Part shown: positions 32,331 through 48,687 of the stretch, one piece after another
Layout of the letters: each line of letters opens with the position of its first letter
Position numbering within the stretch: position 1 is the first letter of the stretch
From: an uncultured Planctomycetota bacterium
Lineage (GTDB): Bacteria; Planctomycetota; Planctomycetia; Isosphaerales; Isosphaeraceae
Assembly: GCA_963845755.1 (NCBI GenBank)
Contig: CAWJTV010000013.1
Location: 96,001-160,000 of the forward strand
DNA: 64,000 bases
Direction of reading: 5' to 3'
Made by a program: the position numbers and the translations under genes
Notes under the pieces: generated by a model
What the model saw: the letters and a program-made list of their open reading frames with translations, nothing else
Database searches by the model: none
Told to the model about the DNA's origin: nothing

Positions 32331-35300
32331 CCCCGCCTCCTGGTGCGACTACACTCAGGTTTATTCGCTGATCTCATTCGCGGTTTGCTCCAAATTGTGG
32401 AGACCTTGAAGATCTTCTCTTCCTGCATCGGATTCAAGGCCAACAGTTCACTCTCATCCTCGCGGACCAAGCGTTGGATAAAGATAGAGAGATTGGCGAA
32501 CGTATCGTCGGTCGAGACGTCGCCCAACTGGTATCCGTCGCTCAACTCCAGAAGCAGATGAAAGACTGCCCGCTTCAAGCCCCGAGCGCTCTTCACGGCC
32601 GTCGCGATAGCGATAGATCAGGAACGCTTGCCGGTGCAGGCGCTCCATGCCCTCCGCTTCCGGCGGAAGATCTGCCTCAAGTCGAAACGAGGTGACCGGC
32701 TTCTCTACCCAAAAGTCCGTTTCTGTTGGCGTTCGAGGCGTGATGGCCAGAGGGATTACGTTGGGCCTGTCGAGCGCCTGGGGTGGCAGATCTTCAAGTC
32801 GCGAAATGCCACGACACAGACGCTCGCAGAGGCTCACCAGCTTCTGTGGGTCCTTGACAATCGGGAGATCTCGGAAAAGACGCAGGTGCCGCCCGCGTGC
32901 CAGATCGAGGGCCTCGGGCTTGCCCGCGAACTCGTCATCGAGCGCCGGGCTTGCCCGCGATCTCCTCTATGTGTTCCTGCGTCCATTCGAAGAATGCCCG
33001 GCGCCGGGCTGATTCCAATTTGAGTCGGTCGTAATGAAGCGCCGTCCTGTCGCTGTCCGGGGAGGGTTTGCTAAGCAGGTGCCGATCGATCTGGGGATGA
33101 GCCTCGAGAGTGGGGTCGAAGCGGACCAGTTCTCGTAATACTTCGCCTTGTCGGCTAGGCGAATCGGCGGAGAAGGCACGGTCCCAGTATGGTGGAACTT
33201 CAGATCCGGCGTGGTAATCCTCGCAGAAGTGGACGCCGAAGAGAATATAGACCAGGGCTGCGCGTAACTCGCGGACAGTGATGTGCGTTTCCCCGCGAAG
33301 GTGGACGGCTTGCAGCGCCGCGAACAGCCGTTGGCGGGCGCGGTCGCGAATGTCCTTGTTCGCTGACCCAGGAAGACCCTCCGGACCGAAGATTCGGTTC
33401 GCACGGAAGACTTCACAGCGATCCTTTGCCGAACAGGATCGGCAAGGTGCCCATGTCGCAGACGCTCGTTCCCCACCATACAAGGAGTCCATCAGGGGCT
33501 CGAAAAAGCTGGTCTCGATTCGGCTCCCGTCAGGTGTGATGCCCCCGACGAGGGACCTTTGATTGAGGCTCACGAATCGGATGTAGGAGTCCTGCGTGGC
33601 AACTTCTCGTCGGAGTAGGTCGTACAGTTCTCCCGTGAGCGCCGTTTCATTGCCACCTTCGCGTGATTCCACACCCTCGATCCACTCGAGCAAACGCCCA
33701 TCGTTAATCGCGAGGAGATGCACAATGTCATCGGTGGGCGGTCCATGCTGGAATGGTGCCAGAAACTCGTCGAGGAGGTTGTCGGCAGAGCGTCCCTGCA
33801 CGCTCCATGCCGCCGATCCGTCCAGATTCATGCGAACAACCAAACCGTCACGCATTCGAGATTGCAGGATGTGCTCGGACGAGGAGTGCTTCCGAACTCC
33901 GAGTCGCGTAGCGAGATGCTGAAGTAGAGCAGTCTTGCCGTCGCCAGCATTGCCACATAAGATCACGAGGCGGACTCGTCGCTCAAATACATCATGATAT
34001 AAGGATTCTTCGAGCCTTGTTTCAACGTAGGTCTGAGAGGCGAAACCCGTGTCGAGCCCCCGCGTCTCACGATTTCCCCACCGCGATCCCGGATAGGACT
34101 GCAACAGTGAACTCAGCCACTCGATTCGTTCCTGGTGCAGTTCCACTCCGGCGCGTTCTTCTTGAGCCCGTTCGGAAGCGCCCGGGAACTACCTTGGCGG
34201 TCCTTCCTTTTGTAGCCGTAGTCGGGTCCGCTTTCGGCTCGGGCGCCTCGAGGACCGCCAGGGCCGCACGAGCTGAGGCAAACCGCTGTCCCGGGTCGGG
34301 ATGGGTTGCCTTGTCGAGGAAATCAGCCAGCGCGAGGCTTTCCGAGCGTTCAATTCCATCCCAGTTCAACCCCCGCTCTTTAGCTTGAGTGCCGGCGAAC
34401 TGGAAAGGTTCCCTCCCGAAGACCACGTGAAAGAAGCTGGACGCCAAAGCGTAGATGTCGTCTGACGGCGAGGTCGCTCGCTGCTCCTGATAAGAGGGTG
34501 AACAATACAAAACGGTGCCGGGCGAAGCAACGGTTTCGCCAATCTTGCCGACGAAATCGTAGTCTGTCAGGACGAGATCGCTTCCGGAAACGATCATGTT
34601 TCGAGGGCTGATGTCGCCGTGAATCAAGCGGTTGCGATGGAGCACATCGAGCGCCCGACACAAAGGCGCGCAGCCACCGCAAGGCCAAGGCTTCACTGGA
34701 CGTCTCTTGCTGCTCTTCTGCCAAAAGTGGGAAGACGCCGGTGAACTCGCCAAGCGGCGTGCCTTCAACCCAGGTCATCAGCGCGACGAATTGGTTCTCC
34801 CGCGGTTCGCCCGCCACCTCAAGGATGGCGGAGAGGCCCGAATGACGGCCGAGGTACGATTGCGCCAGTCTATAGGCCTTCAGGACTCGCTCGCCGGTTT
34901 CCACACTATGCCCAACTTTGGCCACGTAAGTCCCGAGATCCTCTTTCGTTCAACCGGTCGATCTCCACCACCTTGAAGGCCGTCCCCATACCTCCGGATC
35001 CGAGACGTGCAACAATTCGATAATCGCGGTCGTGGAAGCGTACTACCTGCTCTTCCGTCCAGAAGCGGGCCGGAGGGGTTGCCGGCGGCGGTAGTGATTC
35101 GCCCAGCAGTTCGGAGGCCGACGCGTTCAGGGCTTCCAGCGTACAACGCTGCGCCGGGCTCTTCCGCCATGCCTTTCGCGAACACCTCCACGGCCTGCCG
35201 GCTAGTCTCATCGTCCCGTCCCTGGAACAGTGGTGTCAGACAAGCGCAAAGCGAATATACATCCGAGCGAAAGTCCGCAACGCTCAGGCCGAGCGCTCGA

Positions 35301-36410
35301 ACCTCTGGAGAAGCCGTGGCATCCCATTCGCGGGACGGCGTTCCGCTGGATGCCACGGTGATGTCGGAGGGGATCTTGGTGCGATCAAAGCCTGTGAGGA
35401 TCGGCGAATTATCGTATTTCACCAGGATCGTTCTGGGCGTGAGGTTCCGGTGAACCATGGCCTCACCGGCCGCCCCCGCCTTGTGCAACTCGGCCAGCGC
35501 GCGAACGGCCGCCTTGTGCAAAGGTCAACCGCCTAGTCGCGTCCCATGTAGGGTCGGTCGCTCGCTCCTCGATGCTTGGTGCGGCGGGGTTGACCACCGT
35601 GAAGAAGAACATCTCACCCGCATACCCAGGCACTTCCTGATAGGAATCCAGAATTCGAGGAGCCCATTCGCACAGTTGTAACCGATGGAGCGCTTCGAAC
35701 TCGCGTTTGGCCTTGGCCTCGGCATTCTTCTCGTCGTTTGCAGATAGGTCATAGAGATGTAAGATGACCCGATCTTGGCGTGCGGGGTGGCACCCTTTGT
35801 AGACACGATGAAAACGTTCCTCCTTCGACGTTTGGAGCTCCAGGTTAACATAACCGGCGAGCCGGCGCAACGAGCCATCCATAGCGACGGCGATCTTTGG
35901 CTCCAAGGCGTGCCCCAACCTCGCAACTTGTTGAGGCGACAGTGCTCGTCCGGAGTCGACGCCGATGGCGCCTTTCCAATCATTCAGTGTATGGAACCGG
36001 ACCCCTCGTACCTCCTTGTTGGCGAGCCGCTTGACTTTGCTCGGCTCTTGAGTCAGCAGGATAGCGCCAGCCACATGAGGAAGGTTCGGAGCAATCTTGC
36101 GGAGCGTTGTCCCGATCTTGCGAGCCTTGTTCGTAACTCGTTCCGCCTCCTGCTCCACCAGATCTCGATGCTGGTCCACCCATGAAGGACTCCAATGTTT
36201 AACCTCGACGACTCGAACGCCGGGCGAGCCGATCACGACAATGTCGATCTCGTCCGACTGCAACTGATTGGTAATCGAGAAGGCGAGGTTCGTTAGTAGG
36301 ACCCATGGGTCGTCTCCCGCTGCGGTTTGGAGGCGGCTTTTCAATTGCTCGACGGCTTTGCGCTCGCTTTCGTTCACCGCGGGGCCGCAGGGGAAGACGG
36401 TCACTTTCAT
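32326..36410 (-). CDS. NERD nuclease + tandem Ser/Thr kinase + P-loop NTPase, MAD6-like (about 1,350 aa, several frameshifts)
   Basis: NERD: NESERKA...EIDIVVIG...VVEVKHW. Kinase 1 (degenerate): VHRNLTPRTI. Kinase 2: LGSGGMGTAFKV, IHGDISPRN, LTDYD. NTPase: ILCGNAGDGKT and LAINDGRL. Confidence 0.75.
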
Positions 36411-37736: not shown

Positions 37737-38644
37737 GAGTGCTCGGAAAAAATGAGTTCACTGGCCCAGGAGCCTCAAACAGATCAAGGAACATGCTAAC
37801 TTGAGGAACGCGTCTTGAATCTCGGTGAGCCGATCCAAACGGCGGCGCAGCCGGCCGAAGGAGTGCAGCCACGCGATGGTCCGCTCTACGTACCAGCGGG
37901 ACTTGCCCAAACCGCTGCCGTGCTCCGTATTGCGGGCCGCCAGCACCGGCGTGGTCCCCCGGCCGCGCAAACCCTGCCGCACCGGTTCCGAGTCGTAGCC
38001 CCGATCCCCCTGCAAGCGGTCGGGCTTCTGCCGCTTCGGCCCCGGCTTGCCGCCCACCGGCGGCATGTCGTCGAGCGTCGTGAAGACCTGGGTGATCTCG
38101 GGGACGTTGGCGGCGGTCACCGTCGCCGCCAGCGGCACGCCTTGGGCGTCGGTCATCACGTGGTGCTTGCTGCCGGATTTGCTCCGGTCCGTCGGATTCG
38201 GGCCGGTATCCTCGCCCCCTTCCGGGGCCTTGGCGAAGGAGGCGTCGATCAGCGCCCGCTCCCAGTCGATCGCGTCAGCGCCGTTGAGCTCGGCCAGCAA
38301 GACGGCGTGCAACTGGCGCCAGACACGGCCTGCTGCCACGCCTGCAGGTAGGACCGGCAGGTCTTGCCGCAGCCGCAGCCGAGGTCGGCGGGCAAGTCGT
38401 CCCAGGCGATGCCGGTCTTGAGCACGAACAAGATGCCGGTGAGGATCTTGCGGTAGTCCAGGGGTTTGCGTCCCGGGAAGCGGAAGCGGCGCGGAGGCGG
38501 GGGTGGCAGCAAGGGCTCCAGGCGCTTCCACAGCGCATCGGAGACAAGGGGTTTCATGGTGGTCCTCCTTCGGTTCGGGAGATCACTCTCCGAAGGACTC
38601 AAGAGCAGACAGCGTGCCAGTGGATTCATTTTTTCCGAGCGCTC
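37737..38644 (-). mobile_element. IS5-family insertion sequence, 908 bp
   Basis: Long terminal inverted repeats GAGTGCTCGGAAAAAATGAGTTCACTGGC / GCCAGTGGATTCATTTTTTCCGAGCGCTC; TTA duplicated on both flanks. Confidence 0.92.
37758..38557 (-). CDS. IS5-family transposase (frameshift near 38325)
   Basis: MKPLVSDALW...LKTGIAWDDLP, IDAS, GDRGYD and RWYVERTIAWL. Confidence 0.9.
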
Positions 38645-40221: not shown

Positions 40222-41619
40222 TCACTGAGTTCGCCTTCGACTCAATTCCTCTTCGATCTGGTGAGCGGCGGCGGTGAGCCCTCGCACGTCCTTGAGCTTG
40301 GCCAGGTAGACGCATGCGCCGATCAATCCGCCGCCGTACATCAGCACGCGGAAGCCCAGCAACGCCAGATCGCCGCCAGGGTGGTCGACCAGATTGAAGA
40401 TCTGGGCGGCGACCAGCTCGCTGATACCCAGGGCGCCGAACGGCAGCGGCACGGCCGTCGTGAAGAGGATCAAGGGGACCATCAGGAAGTGCTGGGCGAT
40501 GGTGGTCGTCATCGCCGGGAAGAGCATCTTCCCGACGATGTAGAACGCGAGCACGTTGAGCGTATGGTTGCCCATCGACATCAACGTGCAGAACGAGACC
40601 ACGTCCAGCCGGCGCCGGTAGGTCGTCAACATCGACTTCAACTCGGAGACGATCAGGCTCAACCGGGAATGCCCCCTCCCGAGTTGAGGGAAGATCGCGG
40701 TGAACACCTGGCCGAAGATCGCGGCCAGGACCAGCACGCCAAGGCCGGTCGCGATCCAGGCGGCCACGATCAGGTTGCGGACCTCGGTCGGAGGGTTCGC
40801 ACTCCAGGCGATCAACCCGCCGATCGACGCCAGGATGAACAGGCCGAGGAGTCCGACGATCCGGTCGATCACCATGGACGCGATCGCCTGCGTCTTCTTG
40901 ATGTGCATCTTCGCCAGGTAGGCCGCCTTGATCAGGTCGCCCCCCACCGCGCCGGGGATCACCAGGTTGAACACGTTGCCGATGAAGCCCAGGAGGATCG
41001 CCGCGCGGAGGGTGAACCGCGGGTCGATGACCCGGACCAGGAGGAACCAGCGGAAGAATGTCGAGACCAGCCCGATCATGTAGATCACGAGCGCCAGCCC
41101 CAGCAAGCGGAGGTCCAGCGGGGGTCTGAAGAGGGTCTGACCGGTGATTGATGTTGCCTCGCTGAGGACCTGCACCGTCTCGGCACTGCTGAGGACCTGC
41201 TGGGGCAACCAGCCCGGGAGCTGCTGCTTGAGGGTCGCGATCGCGCCGGCTTGGCCGGTGGAGAGGCTCGACTCCAGCTCGTCCGACAGGATCTTGCCGG
41301 AGGCATCGGCGGACGCGAGGTGCAGCGCGCCGCTGCGATCGCTCGTCTCATAGGTGTCGGTGCGGACGCCGGCGGAATCGAAGGTCCGGATGTGGACCAG
41401 GCCGTTGTTGTCGAGGCCGGCGATGACGAGGTTGTTACCCGAGGTCGGCACCCCCGCGCCGTCCCCCCAGGACATCAATTGCAGGTCGGGCCCGCTGAAG
41501 ACCTCCTGGAGCTTGTACCGATTCCTCCAGATGACCCAGCCCAGCAGGCCGAAGGCCAGCGCCACCAGGAGGGCGTTGATGATCAATCCGAGCTTCGAGC
41601 GTGGTGCAGGATTTGTCAT
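40222..41619 (-). CDS. Lysylphosphatidylglycerol synthase TM / flippase-like membrane protein with an in-frame insert (3' end uncertain)
   Basis: RWFLLV, FNLVIPGAVGGDLIK, SMVIDRIVG and PLPFGALGISE motifs. Confidence 0.88.
   Translation of the reverse strand: MTNPAPRSKLGLIINALLVALAFGLLGWVIWRNRYKLQEVFSGPDLQLMSWGDGAGVPTSGNNLVIAGLDNNGLVHIRTFDSAGVRTDTYETSDRSGALHLASADASGKILSDELESSLSTGQAGAIATLKQQLPGWLPQQVLSSAETVQVLSEATSITGQTLFRPPLDLRLLGLALVIYMIGLVSTFFRWFLLVRVIDPRFTLRAAILLGFIGNVFNLVIPGAVGGDLIKAAYLAKMHIKKTQAIASMVIDRIVGLLGLFILASIGGLIAWSANPPTEVRNLIVAAWIATGLGVLVLAAIFGQVFTAIFPQLGRGHSRLSLIVSELKSMLTTYRRRLDVVSFCTLMSMGNHTLNVLAFYIVGKMLFPAMTTTIAQHFLMVPLILFTTAVPLPFGALGISELVAAQIFNLVDHPGGDLALLGFRVLMYGGGLIGACVYLAKLKDVRGLTAAAHQIEEELSRRRTQ
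41126..41501 (-). mobile_element. Putative in-frame coding insertion (369 bp plus duplicated 7-mer)
   Basis: CTGAAGA at 41126-41132 and 41495-41501 (369 bp apart, 123 codons); imperfect terminal inverted repeat GGGTCTGACC / GGTCGGGCCC; hydrophilic segment foreign to the TM protein. Confidence 0.55.
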
Positions 41620-41856
41620 TTCGGACCATTGTTGGTAGTCATGAGAACGGTTCGCGAACCAGTCTCATTGAGATTATCATATATTATTTATTAAATTAAA
41701 TCTGGTGCATCTAGTGTTCTAGTGAACAGTATTTTCGGCCTGTTCCACCTGTTATGCTACCTGTTCTGAGGCACAAGGCTCCTGAGCGTCAATCGCTCTG
41801 GGTCGCGTACGCGCCGCGCGAGCACCATCGCGGGCGCGACACATTTGTGAACCTCT

Positions 41857-42481: not shown

Positions 42482-43532
42482 GGGTCGAGATTTGACGAAG
42501 CGCCACGAGGAAACGGTCGATCTCCTCATCCGTGCCGACGCTGATCCTCAGGCCCTCGGGATAGCCGGGATAGGCCATCAGCCGGACCAGGATCTTGCGG
42601 TCCTTGAGCCGCCTGGAAGGTCGCTCGCGCCGGCGGGCCGCCGGTCGCCCAGACGAAGTTCGACTGGCTGTCGGGCACCTCGTAGCCCAGGGCGCGCAAG
42701 GCGTCGGTGAGTCGTGCACGCGTCGCCAGGACCTTGGCTCGCGTCACCGCCAGGTACTCTTGATCCAGGAGCGCGGCCACCCCGGCGACCTGGCTGAGCC
42801 TGTTGCAGTTATACGAGTCCTTGACCTTGATCAGGTGCTCGACAATCTCCGCCCGAGCCACCAGGTAGCCCAGGCGGATGCCGGCCAGGCTGTACCCCTT
42901 GCTGAAGGATCGCGTGACGATCACGTTGGGGTGTTCCGCCAGCAGGGGGATGCTGTGGTATTCCGGATCGGCGAAATCGGCATAGGCTTCGTCGACCAGG
43001 AGCGGACAGTCGAGCGAGCCCGCCAGCTCGGCGACCTCCGCGCGGGATCGCGGTGCCTGAGGGGCTGTCCGGATTGGCCAGGTAGACCAGCTTGAGGCCG
43101 GGTACGGCCAGCGCGCCGCGGTCGAGCCTCCAGTCCCGGGAATAGGGCACCGTCACGGCGCGACCGTCCTGGAGCTGGATGAGCGTCGCGTAGAGCAGAT
43201 AGCTCGGCGACGCGAAGGCCGCCGGGTCGCCCGGCCCGATGAAAGAGCCGCGTCACGACCGTCAGGATGTCATCCGATCCGTTGCCGGCCAGGATCATCT
43301 CGGGTTCGACCCCGTGCAACTGGGCCGCGGCCCGACACAACTCGGTGCACATCGGGTCGGGATAGAGGCGGAGCCGGTCGGTGACCGCCTCCGCGATCGC
43401 CGCCTTGACCTGGGGCGAGGGAGGATAGGGATTCTCGTTGGTGTTCAGCTTGGTGAATCCGCCGTCGCGCGGCTGTTCGCCCGGCAGATAACCGGCCATC
43501 CGCGCGATGTTCGGACGAAAGAAGCGGCTCAT
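42477..43532 (-). CDS. hisC: Histidinol-phosphate aminotransferase (several apparent sequencing frameshifts)
   Basis: KLNTNENPYPPSP, GNGSDD, VDEAYADF, RSFSKGYSLAGIRLG and LRISVG. Confidence 0.93.
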
Positions 43533-43565
43533 CCCGTTCGGGTCCTCTGGGGCCGTCGCGAACAA

Positions 43566-44120
43566 TCAGGATTCTTGGGCCAGGGCGGCGAGGTGGCGGA
43601 GCGGTTCGTCGTCGAGGCGGTAGACGGTCCACTCGTCCATGGGCCTGGCCCCCACCGCGCGGTAGAAGGCGATCGACGGGGCGTTCCAGTCGAGCACAGA
43701 CCACTCCAGCCGGCCGCAGCCGCGCTCCACGGCCAGCCGGGCGAGGAATGCCAGCAGGGCCTTGCCGATCCCTCGGCCGCGGAATTCCGGCCTCACGAAG
43801 AGATCCTCGAGGTACAGCCCGGGCTGGCCTCGGAACGTCGAGAAGTTGGAGAACCACAGGGCAAAGCCGGCCGGCTCCCCTTCGACCTCAGCGAGGGCGG
43901 CCTCGGCGGCGGGGCGCGGGCCGAAGAGGTGCCGGCGGAAGTCGTCGGGCGTCGCCTTCGCGTACGGTTCCAACTTCTCGTAGATCGCCAGCTCGCGGAC
44001 CAGGTTCACCAGGGTCTCCGCATCGTCGGGCCGGGCCGGCCGGATCGTGAACGAGGCGGTCCGGAAGCCGTTGAATCGCGATGGCGTCGATTCGGACCGC
44101 TCGTTCGGCGCGGAATTCAT
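43566..44120 (-). CDS. GNAT-family N-acetyltransferase (spermidine/diamine acetyltransferase-like)
   Basis: ELAIYEKL, YLEDLFVRPEFRGRGIGKALL and EWSVLDWN; ATG overlaps the hisD stop (ATGA). Confidence 0.92.
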   Translation of the reverse strand: MNSAPNERSESTPSRFNGFRTASFTIRPARPDDAETLVNLVRELAIYEKLEPYAKATPDDFRRHLFGPRPAAEAALAEVEGEPAGFALWFSNFSTFRGQPGLYLEDLFVRPEFRGRGIGKALLAFLARLAVERGCGRLEWSVLDWNAPSIAFYRAVGARPMDEWTVYRLDDEPLRHLAALAQES

Positions 44121-45503
44121 GACGGGCGTTCTCCTTCCAAGTCTCCCTCGACCCGGAGGTTGACACTCAGGCGGTGCGCAGTCGAGCCCTTCTTTGTCGG
44201 CGAGGAGGCGGATATCGGGCGCCAGCGCGGCGAGCCCGTCGCGCGACAGGGCGATCAGGCTCGACCGCTTGAGGAAGTCGTTCACCGAGAGCCCCGAGGC
44301 CCATCGGGCGATTCCACTGGTGGGGAGCACATGCGAGGGCCCAGCGGCGTAATCGCCCGCGGCGACCGGCGAAAAATGGCCCAGGAAGATCGCGCCGGCA
44401 TTGGTCAGCCGCGGAAGGAGCCGTTTTGGATCGAACGTCGAGACGTGCAGGTGTTCGGGCGCAATCCGATTCGAAAGCGTCACGGCCTCGGACTCGTCAC
44501 GGGTGAGGACCATCGCCCCGAACCGTTCGAGGCTGTCGTGCGCCAGGCTGCCCCGGCTCAGCCTCTTGAGCTGCTCCTCCAGGGCCACGACGACGCGATC
44601 GATCAGCGACGGCTCCCAGGTCAGGAGGATGCTGGCGCCCGGCGAATGTTCGGCCTGGCTGATCAGGTCCGCGGCGAGGAACCTGGGGATCGCGGTGGCG
44701 TCGGCGATCACGACGACCTCGCTCGGCCCGGCGATGCAGTCGATGTCAACCGTGCCATAGACGTGCCGCTTGGCCAGCGCAACGAAGAGGTTTCCCGGCC
44801 CGACGATCTTGTCCACGGGCTCGAGCCCGATCTCGCGGATCCCGTAGGCCAGGGCGGCGACGCCTTGCGCACCGCCGATCCGGTAGACCTCCGAAACGCC
44901 CAACGCCTGACAGGCGGCCAGGAGATCGACATTGTAGCCGCCGAATCGCGTGGGGGGGACGATAACGGCGATCTCGGCGACCCCCGCCGCCTGGGCCGGG
45001 ACGACCGTCATGAGCAAACTCGAGGGATAGGCCGCCGCCCCGCCGGGGATGCAGACCCCCACCCGTCGCAACGGCCGGTAGAGCATTCCCAGCTCGATCC
45101 CCGGCCCGCGGTCGAGCCGGACGTCGCCGTGCCGGATGGCCTCCTGATAAGCCAGGATGTTGCCACGGACCCGATCGATCGTCTCGAGAAAGGCGGGATC
45201 GGCCTGACGATGGGCGTCGGCCAGCTCGTCCGCCGAAACCCGGAGTTGGCCCGGCTCGAGCACGGCGCCGTCGAGGCTACGGCCGTAGTCGAGCACAGCG
45301 TCGAGCCCGCGCGCGGCGACGTCGTCGCAGATCCGCTCGACGACTTGCCGGGGCTCCAGGGCTTCGCCGAACGCCGCAATGGTTCGCGCACGCCCCTCGG
45401 GGCTCACCACGTTCCCCCGGGGACTCAACTCGGCGCGGAGCTCGGCGATCGCCCGCTCCGCGTCGTCACTGGCGCAGTCGATTCGTCGCATTCTCAGCGC
45501 CAC
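44117..45503 (-). CDS. hisD: Histidinol dehydrogenase (frameshift near 44180)
   Basis: PGGAAAYPSS, GGAQGVAALAYG, KIVGPGN, AGPSE, SQAEH, APEHL and GDYAAGPSHVLPT. Confidence 0.96.
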
Positions 45504-45870
45504 TCTTGGCTCCCCGACTTCTCCAGGTGAGGCACGATGCACGATCTCAGGCCGGATGTCTCGATCGCCTCACCATGGGGTTAGACACGCGTGGGGAACC
45601 CTCCGGCTCTTTGTCGGGTGCTCGCTGAGCACCGGAGAGGGCCTGACGCGGGGATCGGTGCTCACAGAGCACCCGACGCGCCCGTGTGAAACCCGACCGT
45701 GAGGCGCTCTACCAATACCGTGCAACACGGTTCGGCCGCAATGCCGAAGCCCGGCATCCCCTTGCGGATCCGCACCGTCATGGACCAGGCCACCGGCAAT
45801 CCGATCCGCACGATCAAATACCGGACGATGGCGATCTGAGCATCCGGACGAGCGTGGCCTCGCCTCTCTC

Positions 45871-46689: not shown

Positions 46690-48545
46690 TCATGGAGTGC
46701 GCGGAGGCGTTGGGCCTTGGGCGGCCATGTCCGGACCGGGCGTGGGGTTCGAGGTCGTCTCCAGTCGATCGAGCCGCTGTTCGAGGCGGTCCATCCGCTC
46801 GACGAACGCCTGGGGCAGGGTGTGCCGCAGTTCATGGATCGAGACCGCCGGATTCGGGGTCCGGCGGGTCGGGCGATCCGAGTGTGAGGGGTAAGTCGTC
46901 GCGGGCTCCGGGGCCGGTGGACGCGAGGGAGGTGAGGCCGCCGGGACGGGTTCCGGCGGCGCCGGCGCCGGTTCTGCAGGAGCGGCCCGCGAGGCGGTGG
47001 GCGTCACGGGCACGTTCGCTCGCGGTGTTGCGGAGACGGTGACCGTCGGCGACCGTGCGGGACTGGGACCCCCCGGCGTCGCGTCCGGCCGACTGGCCGT
47101 GTGCAGGGAGACTTCGATCCGCACGCGTGCCCGGCCATCACCGCGGACGATGCTCAGGATGATGGTGATCTGCGCGGGGAGTCGATCCAGCCGGTCGATC
47201 AGTTCGTGGTGCGACCGGATTGCCTGGCCGTCGAGCGCGATGATGCGATCGCCGGGACGGAGGCCGGCCGTCGCCGCGGGCGTACCGGTCAGGACCTCGC
47301 TCACCCGGGCGCCGTCCCCCGCGGCGGTCGGCGCCGGCATCGTGCCGGCTTCGCCCGGACCCGTCGGCGCCGTGGCCGGCTCGACCGGCGGCGCGAGCGG
47401 ACCCACGGCGTGCAGCAGGGTCAACTCGATCCGGACTCCCAGGTAGGCGCGGTCGACGTACCCGTGGGTCCGTAGCTGGTCCGCGACCCAGAGCGCATCG
47501 CGGGTCGGGATGGCGAAGCCGAAGTCGGTATCGCGGTCGTCGTCGGGATCGACCCCGTCGGCTCGCGCCGCCGGGGCGGGTTCGGCGTCGGCGTCGGGGC
47601 CTGAGCCCGGAATCGCCAGCCCGCCGCGGATCAGCCCAAGCCAGGCGCCGCGAACATCGACGACCGCCGCGCCGCTGTCCCCGGGATAGAGCGGCGCCTG
47701 GACCTGGATCAGTCCGCCCAGTTGGCGAGTGCCCAGCTCGAGCGCGATCCAGGCCAGCGACATGCCCCCGGCTCACGGAATGACCCATGCCGAACGGGCT
47801 GCCCACCACGAACACCTGGCAACCCAGCTTCGGACCGCTGGCCGCGGACGAGATCGGCCGCATGGCGCGCGGTGAGACTTGCAGCAGTGTCAACCCCGTC
47901 TCGGGGTCGGCCGCGACCCATCGGGCCGCATGACGGCGGCCCAGGAAGTCACGCGCGACGATCGGCGCCAGGTTCTTCCGTGTCCCCGGCGCCGGTCGCG
48001 TGGGAGGTGGATCAATTCGAACCGAAAGGATCTCACCTCCATTATTGATCACCACGCCGGTCGCCACCCGCCGCGTATCGGCCGGTGCATCCGACGCAGT
48101 GTATTCCAGTGCCACAACCGACTCGCGCCCGCGCCACCGCCGCGGCGATCCGCTGTTCCAGGCGATCCCAGGCCGCGAGCAAGTCGTCGGGATGCGACGC
48201 GGCGCCATGGCCATCGCGATCGCCGGCGCCGACGGGATGCCCCGCCTGGCTCCCGGGCGGCCGGTGCGGCTCATTACCAGGACTCGCTCCCTCGGTTGTC
48301 TCATCCGGTTGCCGCGCTCCCGCGGCCGAGGTCGGTGATTCCCCGCCGTCACGAGGTCCCGCCGGATCCATCGCCGCGACCGCCACGGGCGGCCGGCGCC
48401 CGGCCGAACCTCGTCCCCACAGGCCAATCCGCGGTCCCACCAACCCGGCGGCCAGCACCCCGCCGGCCAGCACCAGCGCGGCTCCGCCGGCCAGCCAGGC
48501 CGCCGGCGTTTTCGACCTCGGATGATGGAGTAAGGGCAAACTCAT
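46690..48545 (-). CDS. Trypsin-like S1C/HtrA-fold protein with PDZ domain (frameshifted; probably non-catalytic)
   Basis: VVGSPFGMGHSVSRG, IQVQAPLYPGDSG, GFAIP, AYLGV and PAATAGLRPGDRII. Confidence 0.8.
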
Positions 48546-48687
48546 CGGATTCCCTGTCAGTCCTCGTCAGCGGGCAGGCAACATGGACGAGGAGCGCACG
48601 CCGGTAGTTACTGCGTATTCAGCGGATCGTGAAAAAGACCCCTCCGATATTTCACTGCGTACACACTCCTGCCGACTACCTACTATT

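Follow-up and report, generated by a model that had tools for sequence, protein, structure and literature searches.

A protein-coding MITE lies in frame within a gene for a flippase-like membrane protein in the window, by which we mean the whole 64,000-nucleotide stretch of Isosphaeraceae DNA that was analysed. It is short, has no transposase, carries IS-like TIRs, is bounded by a duplication of fixed length, is matched by empty sites and occurs as dispersed copies. We think it probable that this is an IS-type, transposase-free element that is moved in trans and persists as a predicted folded domain tolerated by its hosts.

The window copy and its host gene

The host gene (40222..41619, minus strand) encodes a protein of 465 aa that scores 97.5 bits against LPG_synthase_TM (PF03706; cut-off 33.4), in agreement with an earlier sequence-only reading, which had called it LPG-synthase-like. 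The same reading had pointed to a 123-codon segment bounded by the 7-bp repeat CTGAAGA at a spacing of exactly 369 bp. Both copies of the repeat are located, at 41126-41132 and 41495-41501, in frame within the gene, and an in-register 7-mer repeat at this spacing would arise by chance at 0.2% of positions, as judged from 5,000 random window positions. The target duplication proposed on this basis is present, but it is 8 bp long with one mismatch rather than 7 bp: the upstream copy, TCTTCAGC (41494..41501, minus strand), is identical to the single empty site in G001, a genome of the same genus as the window genome (G000), and the downstream copy, TCTTCAGA (41125..41132, minus strand), matches it at 7/8 positions. 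The element proper is 361 bp long (3n+1; 41133..41493, minus strand), belongs to the long subfamily and encodes 120 aa, corresponding to host residues 43-162; the three further residues (LFR) come from the last element base and the duplication. The inverted ends are likewise present, but run for about 22 bp and not 10: the left TIR (41472..41493, minus strand), 16/22 identical to the TIR of a partner IS of ISKra4 type, encodes the first residues, GPDLQLM, and the right TIR (41133..41154, minus strand), with 19/22 identities, encodes the last, TSITGQT. Because the empty site in G001 has a single TCTTCAGC, the original loop would have read V-F-S-[H/P]-P-L-D-L, and not V-F-R-P-P as had been expected on removal of the segment. 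In the full-length model of the host protein, the insert is placed between helix 34-41 and helix 170-198.

The top orthologues of the host protein are mostly 330-400 aa long, and 119 of the 120 best (of 881 found) are without the element; the exception, P0142, has a long-form copy in the same loop, 3 codons further along.

Several other genes in the window look split or fused by frameshifts (42526-45542, 46690-48607 and 32935-36410), which suggests assembly indel errors. We take these genes to be a hisC-like gene in pieces, a hisD-like gene run into a GNAT-like ORF, a trypsin/PDZ-like gene and a kinase gene, and what is presumably an IS5-type transposase appears in two overlapping frames at 37758-38629.

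Transposon ends, duplications and empty sites

Across 80 full copies the element measures 271-361 bp, with one open frame and no transposase inside, and its TIRs match that of the IS at up to 21-22/22 positions. In the 29 copies that have both TIRs at 14/22 or better, with ends set by the best TIR match, the length is 3n+1 in 27, a count that is independent since the ends were placed by TIR match, and the two exceptions carry a frameshift; another 3n+1 count, fixed in advance by how the copies were delimited, was left aside. The identity between their flanks peaks only at k=8 (0.53, versus 0.22-0.29 at other k from 3 to 13). Duplications of at least 6/8 were found in 12 of the 29, versus 0.4% of 812 mismatched pairings, and the remaining 17 have 5/8 or less. 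Since the quality of the duplication tracks that of the TIRs (rho 0.47), the poor duplications are read as probable decay with age.

Five filled/empty pairs were identified between G000 and G001, with a single copy of the target at every empty site; for four G001 copies, the orthologous G000 sites are empty and have one target each. No copy is common to these two genomes, which hold 7 and 10 copies, respectively. The highest identity between copies at different loci is 91%, indicating that there is no current burst of transposition. The earlier proposal of a non-autonomous mobile element inserted in frame is upheld by the TIRs, the 8-bp duplication, the empty sites and the presence in G000 of a cognate IS. 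That proposal had looked to copies with the same termini in unrelated genes, to fresh target duplications at such copies and to empty sites in orthologues, and all three were found.

Distribution, hosts and clustering

Of 121 genomes of the family Isosphaeraceae, 61 (60 of 120 besides G000) gave a total of 210 matches in six-frame searches, and 400 genomes from elsewhere in the phylum gave none. G000 has 7 copies, all in genes, by both protein and DNA profile, and beyond these loci the DNA profile gave nothing better than E 0.015. The peptide matches 89 longer proteins of unrelated annotation, including AcrB, cytochrome oxidase II, kinases, WD40, MFS and response regulator proteins, and its boundaries are sharp across hosts, starting with G-x-D-L-x-L-M and ending with I-V-G-x-T. 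Nramp, Kup, TPR, HEAT and Calx-beta proteins are also among the hosts of the element. A 34-row profile matched 1,712 protein clusters (50% identity) at E<=0.001 and 1,247 at E<=1e-10, the best 150 of the 1,712 being inspected. The 80 full copies comprise 42 of S-type and 29 of W-type (about 95 aa) and nine long ones (about 120 aa); the long subfamily, to which the window copy belongs, is nested within W in a quick tree of few columns, which serves as a basis for the three subfamilies only. No copy was found in the plasmids searched, in viral contigs searched by two peptide patterns only, or in a metagenome scan with the whole protein as query. Copies were also seen in records labelled delta proteobacterium (L024:3001-3286) and Solibacteraceae (L025:3001-3289, with an 8/8 duplication), and represent either transfer between phyla or mis-binned contigs.

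The copies are clustered. Among 114 copies in 20 genomes, eight pairs lie within 5 kb of each other (0.27 expected); 11 of the 89 proteins contain 2-4 copies; and 15 of 251, in a set enriched for multi-copy proteins, were flagged as nested or adjacent, about ten of them clear insertions into an older copy. Some close pairs, such as that in L158, may be duplications of host segments, but in L142 the two copies, separated by 561 bp, differ in their duplications (8/8 and 7/8). The clustering is most simply explained by local hopping.

Copies occupy the same site or region of one gene family in different genomes, whether by common descent or by repeated insertion, in the case of Kup (L093, L122), HGSNAT-type (L079, L092) and HlyD (L130, L132) genes and the C-terminal tail of AcrB (L037, L040). 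One copy in G000 (C36:341530-342310; L001, L009) is in a signal-peptide gene broken by several frameshifts, which is either a pseudogene or an assembly error and presumably carries caspase-like motifs.

Reading frame and the TIR-coded ends of the peptide

Open frames of at least 250 codons hold 145 of the best 150 of the 210 matches, with no inner stop; the 60 weakest matches, which could hold decayed or non-coding copies, fall outside this count. In three fully listed genomes, 31 of 32 copies are within frames of 300 codons or more, and neither six-frame nor DNA-profile searches of G000, both of which are able to detect such copies, found an intergenic or out-of-frame one. On entry, the TIR of the IS has a stop in two of three phases, the open phase being read as G-C-D-R-R-L-M, and exit from it after 3n+1 bases gives T-S-I-V-G-H-T. 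With two entry phases stopped and the frame restored by 3n+1 plus 8 bases, only one of six insertion phases is readable in nearly all copies. Accordingly, phase +0 is open in 79 of 80 copies and each other phase in 0-10 of 80. By a codon model with a self-accuracy of 92%, the flanks are in the frame of the element in 64 of 80 cases upstream and 67 of 79 downstream, the exceptions including C-terminal fusions and probable frameshifts.

The single readable phase through the TIRs means that they dictate the ends of the peptide itself, and the residues coded by the left TIR include the predicted strand 3-6 of the domain. Position 11 of this TIR is T in 79 of 80 copies, whereas G occupies it in the IS and in 68 of 80 right TIRs; the T changes a codon of the first predicted strand from Arg to Leu. 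Selection at the protein level is thus likely to have reshaped a putative transposase-binding site, and other TIR variants with T at position 11 exist, so tolerance of the change by the enzyme is plausible.

The partner insertion sequence and sister elements

A TIR scan of G000 revealed three insertion sequences of 1,421 bp, 0-2 differences apart, all with a perfect 24-bp TIR and with duplications of 8/8, 7/8 and 8/8. Each has a single ORF, without the two-ORF layout of ISMich2, and the 427-aa protein scores 205.8 bits against NF033572 ISKra4 (cut-off 205; E 1.2e-60), which is only just above the cut-off and makes the putative assignment to the ISKra4 family marginal. Because TIR and duplication length are common to the element and the IS, this IS is the likely mobiliser of the element in trans. 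The element is present in 14 of 25 genomes with the transposase lineage and in 47 of 96 without it; this lack of co-occurrence fits long persistence after loss of the IS and gives no support to the pairing. Two more distant relatives of the partner IS (71%) are present in G000, at C11:879380-880796 and C13:271787-273205, with a different TIR and no clear duplication.

The same TIR bounds domain-free, non-autonomous elements of 145-833 bp (L144:1501-1645, L141:1374-1522, L159:1546-1705, L160:1511-1670, L136:1501-1741, L139:1276-1522, L151:1467-1760, L157:1302-1696, L164:7001-7441 and L128:690-1522), most of which have stops in several frames and flanks without a common coding frame. Their shared TIR indicates that the IS lineage sheds MITEs, of which the coding element is one. 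The sister element in L144 is 3n+1 in length with an open frame, yet its position is a short way upstream of what looks like the start of a gene on the opposite strand. A further element of 721/722 bp with variant TIRs was seen in two genomes (L119:1501-2222 and L167:1472-2192, the latter with an 8/8 duplication), and includes a passenger ORF that encodes a small hydrophobic protein.

The possibility that the transposase targets a particular frame found no support: the IS copies and sister MITEs have no common flanking frame, and 20 good duplications gave no clear consensus.

The encoded domain

AlphaFold2 modelled the isolated domain with a pLDDT of 94.5 and a pTM of 0.88; the folded insert foreseen from the sequence has the standing of a prediction. 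Six strands plus two helices make up the predicted secondary structure of the 120 aa of the window copy. When the whole host protein is modelled, the pLDDT of the insert is low (blocks 43-65) with a secondary structure similar to that of the isolated domain, and most of the host helices are modelled with confidence (blocks 70-96, one at 59). R36 is invariant in the peptide, and H34, D71, E74 and E105 are conserved. The dN/dS of the element, 0.45, is the median of 534 of 561 pairs, which are non-independent, and it stays at 0.37-0.51 in all age classes, versus 0.08-0.22 for host flanks.

No family for the domain was found in the Pfam, NCBIfam and PHROG libraries. Foldseek against PDB and BFVD gave nothing at E<=0.001, the best score in the ESM Atlas was 0.80, with no family, and a wide structure search (VIA) gave a best Z of 5.6 and none of 8 or more, that is, no clear match, which does not imply newness of the fold. 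A 35-residue match to the PDB sequence of the Brat NHL repeats (E 3e-5) had no echo in the fold searches and was set aside as a beta-hairpin coincidence. No TIR-less parent of the internal coding sequence was found among the matches inspected. In sequencing runs, at most 16% of the words were present, the single RNA run giving short unrelated pieces only; two 151-nt DNA contigs, which may be from the source sample, match the junction areas exactly and do not bridge them by 31 bases.

How the element may spread and persist

In the model that we propose, a transposase of the ISKra4 lineage would bind the TIRs and copy the element in trans, probably via a circular intermediate and with a bias to nearby sites. 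Out-of-frame copies would then be purged, and intergenic copies would gradually disappear by deletion; a copy that is in frame within a useful gene could be lost only by precise deletion, and such copies would accumulate. Selection in every host would keep the peptide foldable and would have adapted the left TIR to the fold. That copies at different loci are at most 91% identical fits all of them being old enough for such purging and deletion.

An explanation that we hold to be unlikely, though it deserves to be weighed, keeps the same element and mobiliser but makes the domain useful, as by binding a ligand, polymer or partner or by stabilising or localising the host protein, so that positive selection retains it. 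The conserved charged residues and the dN/dS of about 0.45 would suit this explanation, as would the absence of intergenic copies from those found in G000, the 11 of 89 proteins with 2-4 copies, one insertion that three genera share at a single site of a HEAT-repeat protein (element dS 0.7-1.45), the second insertion 3 codons away in the same loop of orthologue P0142, and same-site or same-loop copies in Kup and HGSNAT-type genes. However, the hosts, which include transporters, WD40, TPR, HEAT and Calx-beta proteins and kinases, are without a common function; 119 of the 120 best orthologues manage without the element; the sister genomes with 7 and 10 copies have none in common; the dN/dS of the element is two to six times that of the host; and older copies have been split by nested insertions. 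We read the domain as mostly a tolerated passenger.

It would also be harmless if it were removed after transcription or translation by splicing or self-cleavage chemistry of a new kind, which we consider very improbable. Tolerance of the segment in short loops of membrane proteins could be accounted for in this way, and a catalytic role is conceivable for the conserved H, R, D and E residues. Inteins, which excise themselves by protein splicing, have Cys or Ser as the first residue, His-Asn at the end and Cys, Ser or Thr thereafter, whereas the consensus here starts with G-x-D-L and ends with I-V-G-x-T, and the residue after the element varies freely. The sequence-only reading had correctly noted that the segment has neither intein motifs nor a transposase. 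An RNA intron would need no strict keeping of the frame, RNA folding was no better than that of shuffles in two copies (z -0.36 and -1.52), and the extra residues from the duplication would stay behind after removal. No Hint family appeared in the Pfam scan or among the fold matches listed, in which a Hint fold could have been missed, and Rfam gave no match at E<=1 on 40900-41800.

Least probable of all is that recombination or shuffling has spread an ordinary domain specific to this lineage, and that the repeats are a side effect of conservation in its terminal residues: some multi-copy cases may indeed be duplications of host segments (the tandem copies of P0005, the alike inverted flanks of L158), but the duplication signal specific to 8 bp, the empty sites with a single target, the identity of the TIRs to those of a bona fide IS, and the reverse complementarity of the two ends, which would not result from conservation of the protein, all argue against it.

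Beyond the model of a mobilised and tolerated domain, the odds seem to us about even that this IS-derived element has brought forth a new globular fold, with its first strand and last residues spelled by putative transposase-binding repeats, in which mobility and fold are selected jointly and some insertions have been domesticated. If true, the element would exemplify a third way of mobile life inside genes, beside RNA splicing and protein splicing, and would have acted as a natural screen for domain insertion throughout a bacterial family (1,247 protein clusters at E<=1e-10). The element offers a route by which a domain without a known fold may arise and spread. The natural insertion sites chart, for many protein families, the loops that are permissive, the TIR pair and transposase are a candidate natural tool for in-frame domain insertion, and the element accounts for a recurring unannotated segment in Isosphaeraceae proteins. 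One coding MITE is now available together with the transposase that is likely to move it, with alleles both filled and empty, and with a domain that is predicted to be stable, which makes it testable how coding MITEs move, whether new protein domains arise from them and whether the fusions are neutral.

Comparison with known systems

We found no description of the element in the open literature, subscription papers and ISfinder lying outside the scope of the search. With inteins and IStrons, the latter of which, as described in a part of PMC4227781, excise by RNA splicing, it has in common that mobile DNA is rendered harmless inside genes, but the element appears to stay in the protein instead.

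The ISKra4 family (p-MULT 4, Mutator-like) is described in sections of PMC3942029 as having IRs of 18-39 bp with a terminal C and duplications of 8-9 bp, as present in Planctomycetes, and as belonging to a superfamily for which circular intermediates are reported. The 24-bp perfect IR and 8-bp duplications of the partner IS are within these ranges. Four ISKra4 elements with extra stand-alone ORFs are mentioned in the same sections, in which the word MITE is absent (PMC3942029). The element differs from these in having no transposase and in a cargo that lacks its own start and stop, its frame running on through both TIRs.

Other MITEs have open frames that fuse to genes, among them ERIC/RU-1, YPAL/RU-2, RU-3 and the 107-bp Correia element; these are about 100-170 bp long and mainly intergenic, with fusions in the minority, and the excerpts of PMC2759123 and PMC2229807 that treat them describe none with a folded domain under purifying selection. 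Known coding MITEs, such as RPE and ERIC, add short peptides, and the parts of the reviews that deal with them present no demonstrated mobiliser.

The closest likeness is to the Rickettsia palindromic elements (RPEs), which, according to passages of PMC2229807 and PMC10969869, are small non-autonomous repeats of 105-146 bp (~150 bp) with long stem-loops, which add a conserved peptide to unrelated proteins by in-frame fusion to their genes and are present between genes as well; in guanylate kinase the fusion is translated and active and is read as near-neutral. In the same passages the target duplication is given as "?" and no transposase is named (PMC2229807, PMC10969869). The likeness to RPEs drawn in the sequence-only reading holds for the outcome, namely in-frame fusion into unrelated genes with a conserved peptide, but fails for the anatomy. 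At 271-361 bp the element is outside the RPE size range, is not palindromic beyond its TIRs and is without a long stable stem-loop in the two copies folded, neither of which folds better than shuffles; its peptide has no match in Pfam or NCBIfam. It has, moreover, an 8-bp duplication and a cognate IS, was in frame in nearly all cases found and codes for what is predicted to be an entire globular domain. We conclude that it is a protein-coding MITE that is RPE-like in outcome, with a fair chance of following a distinct strategy.
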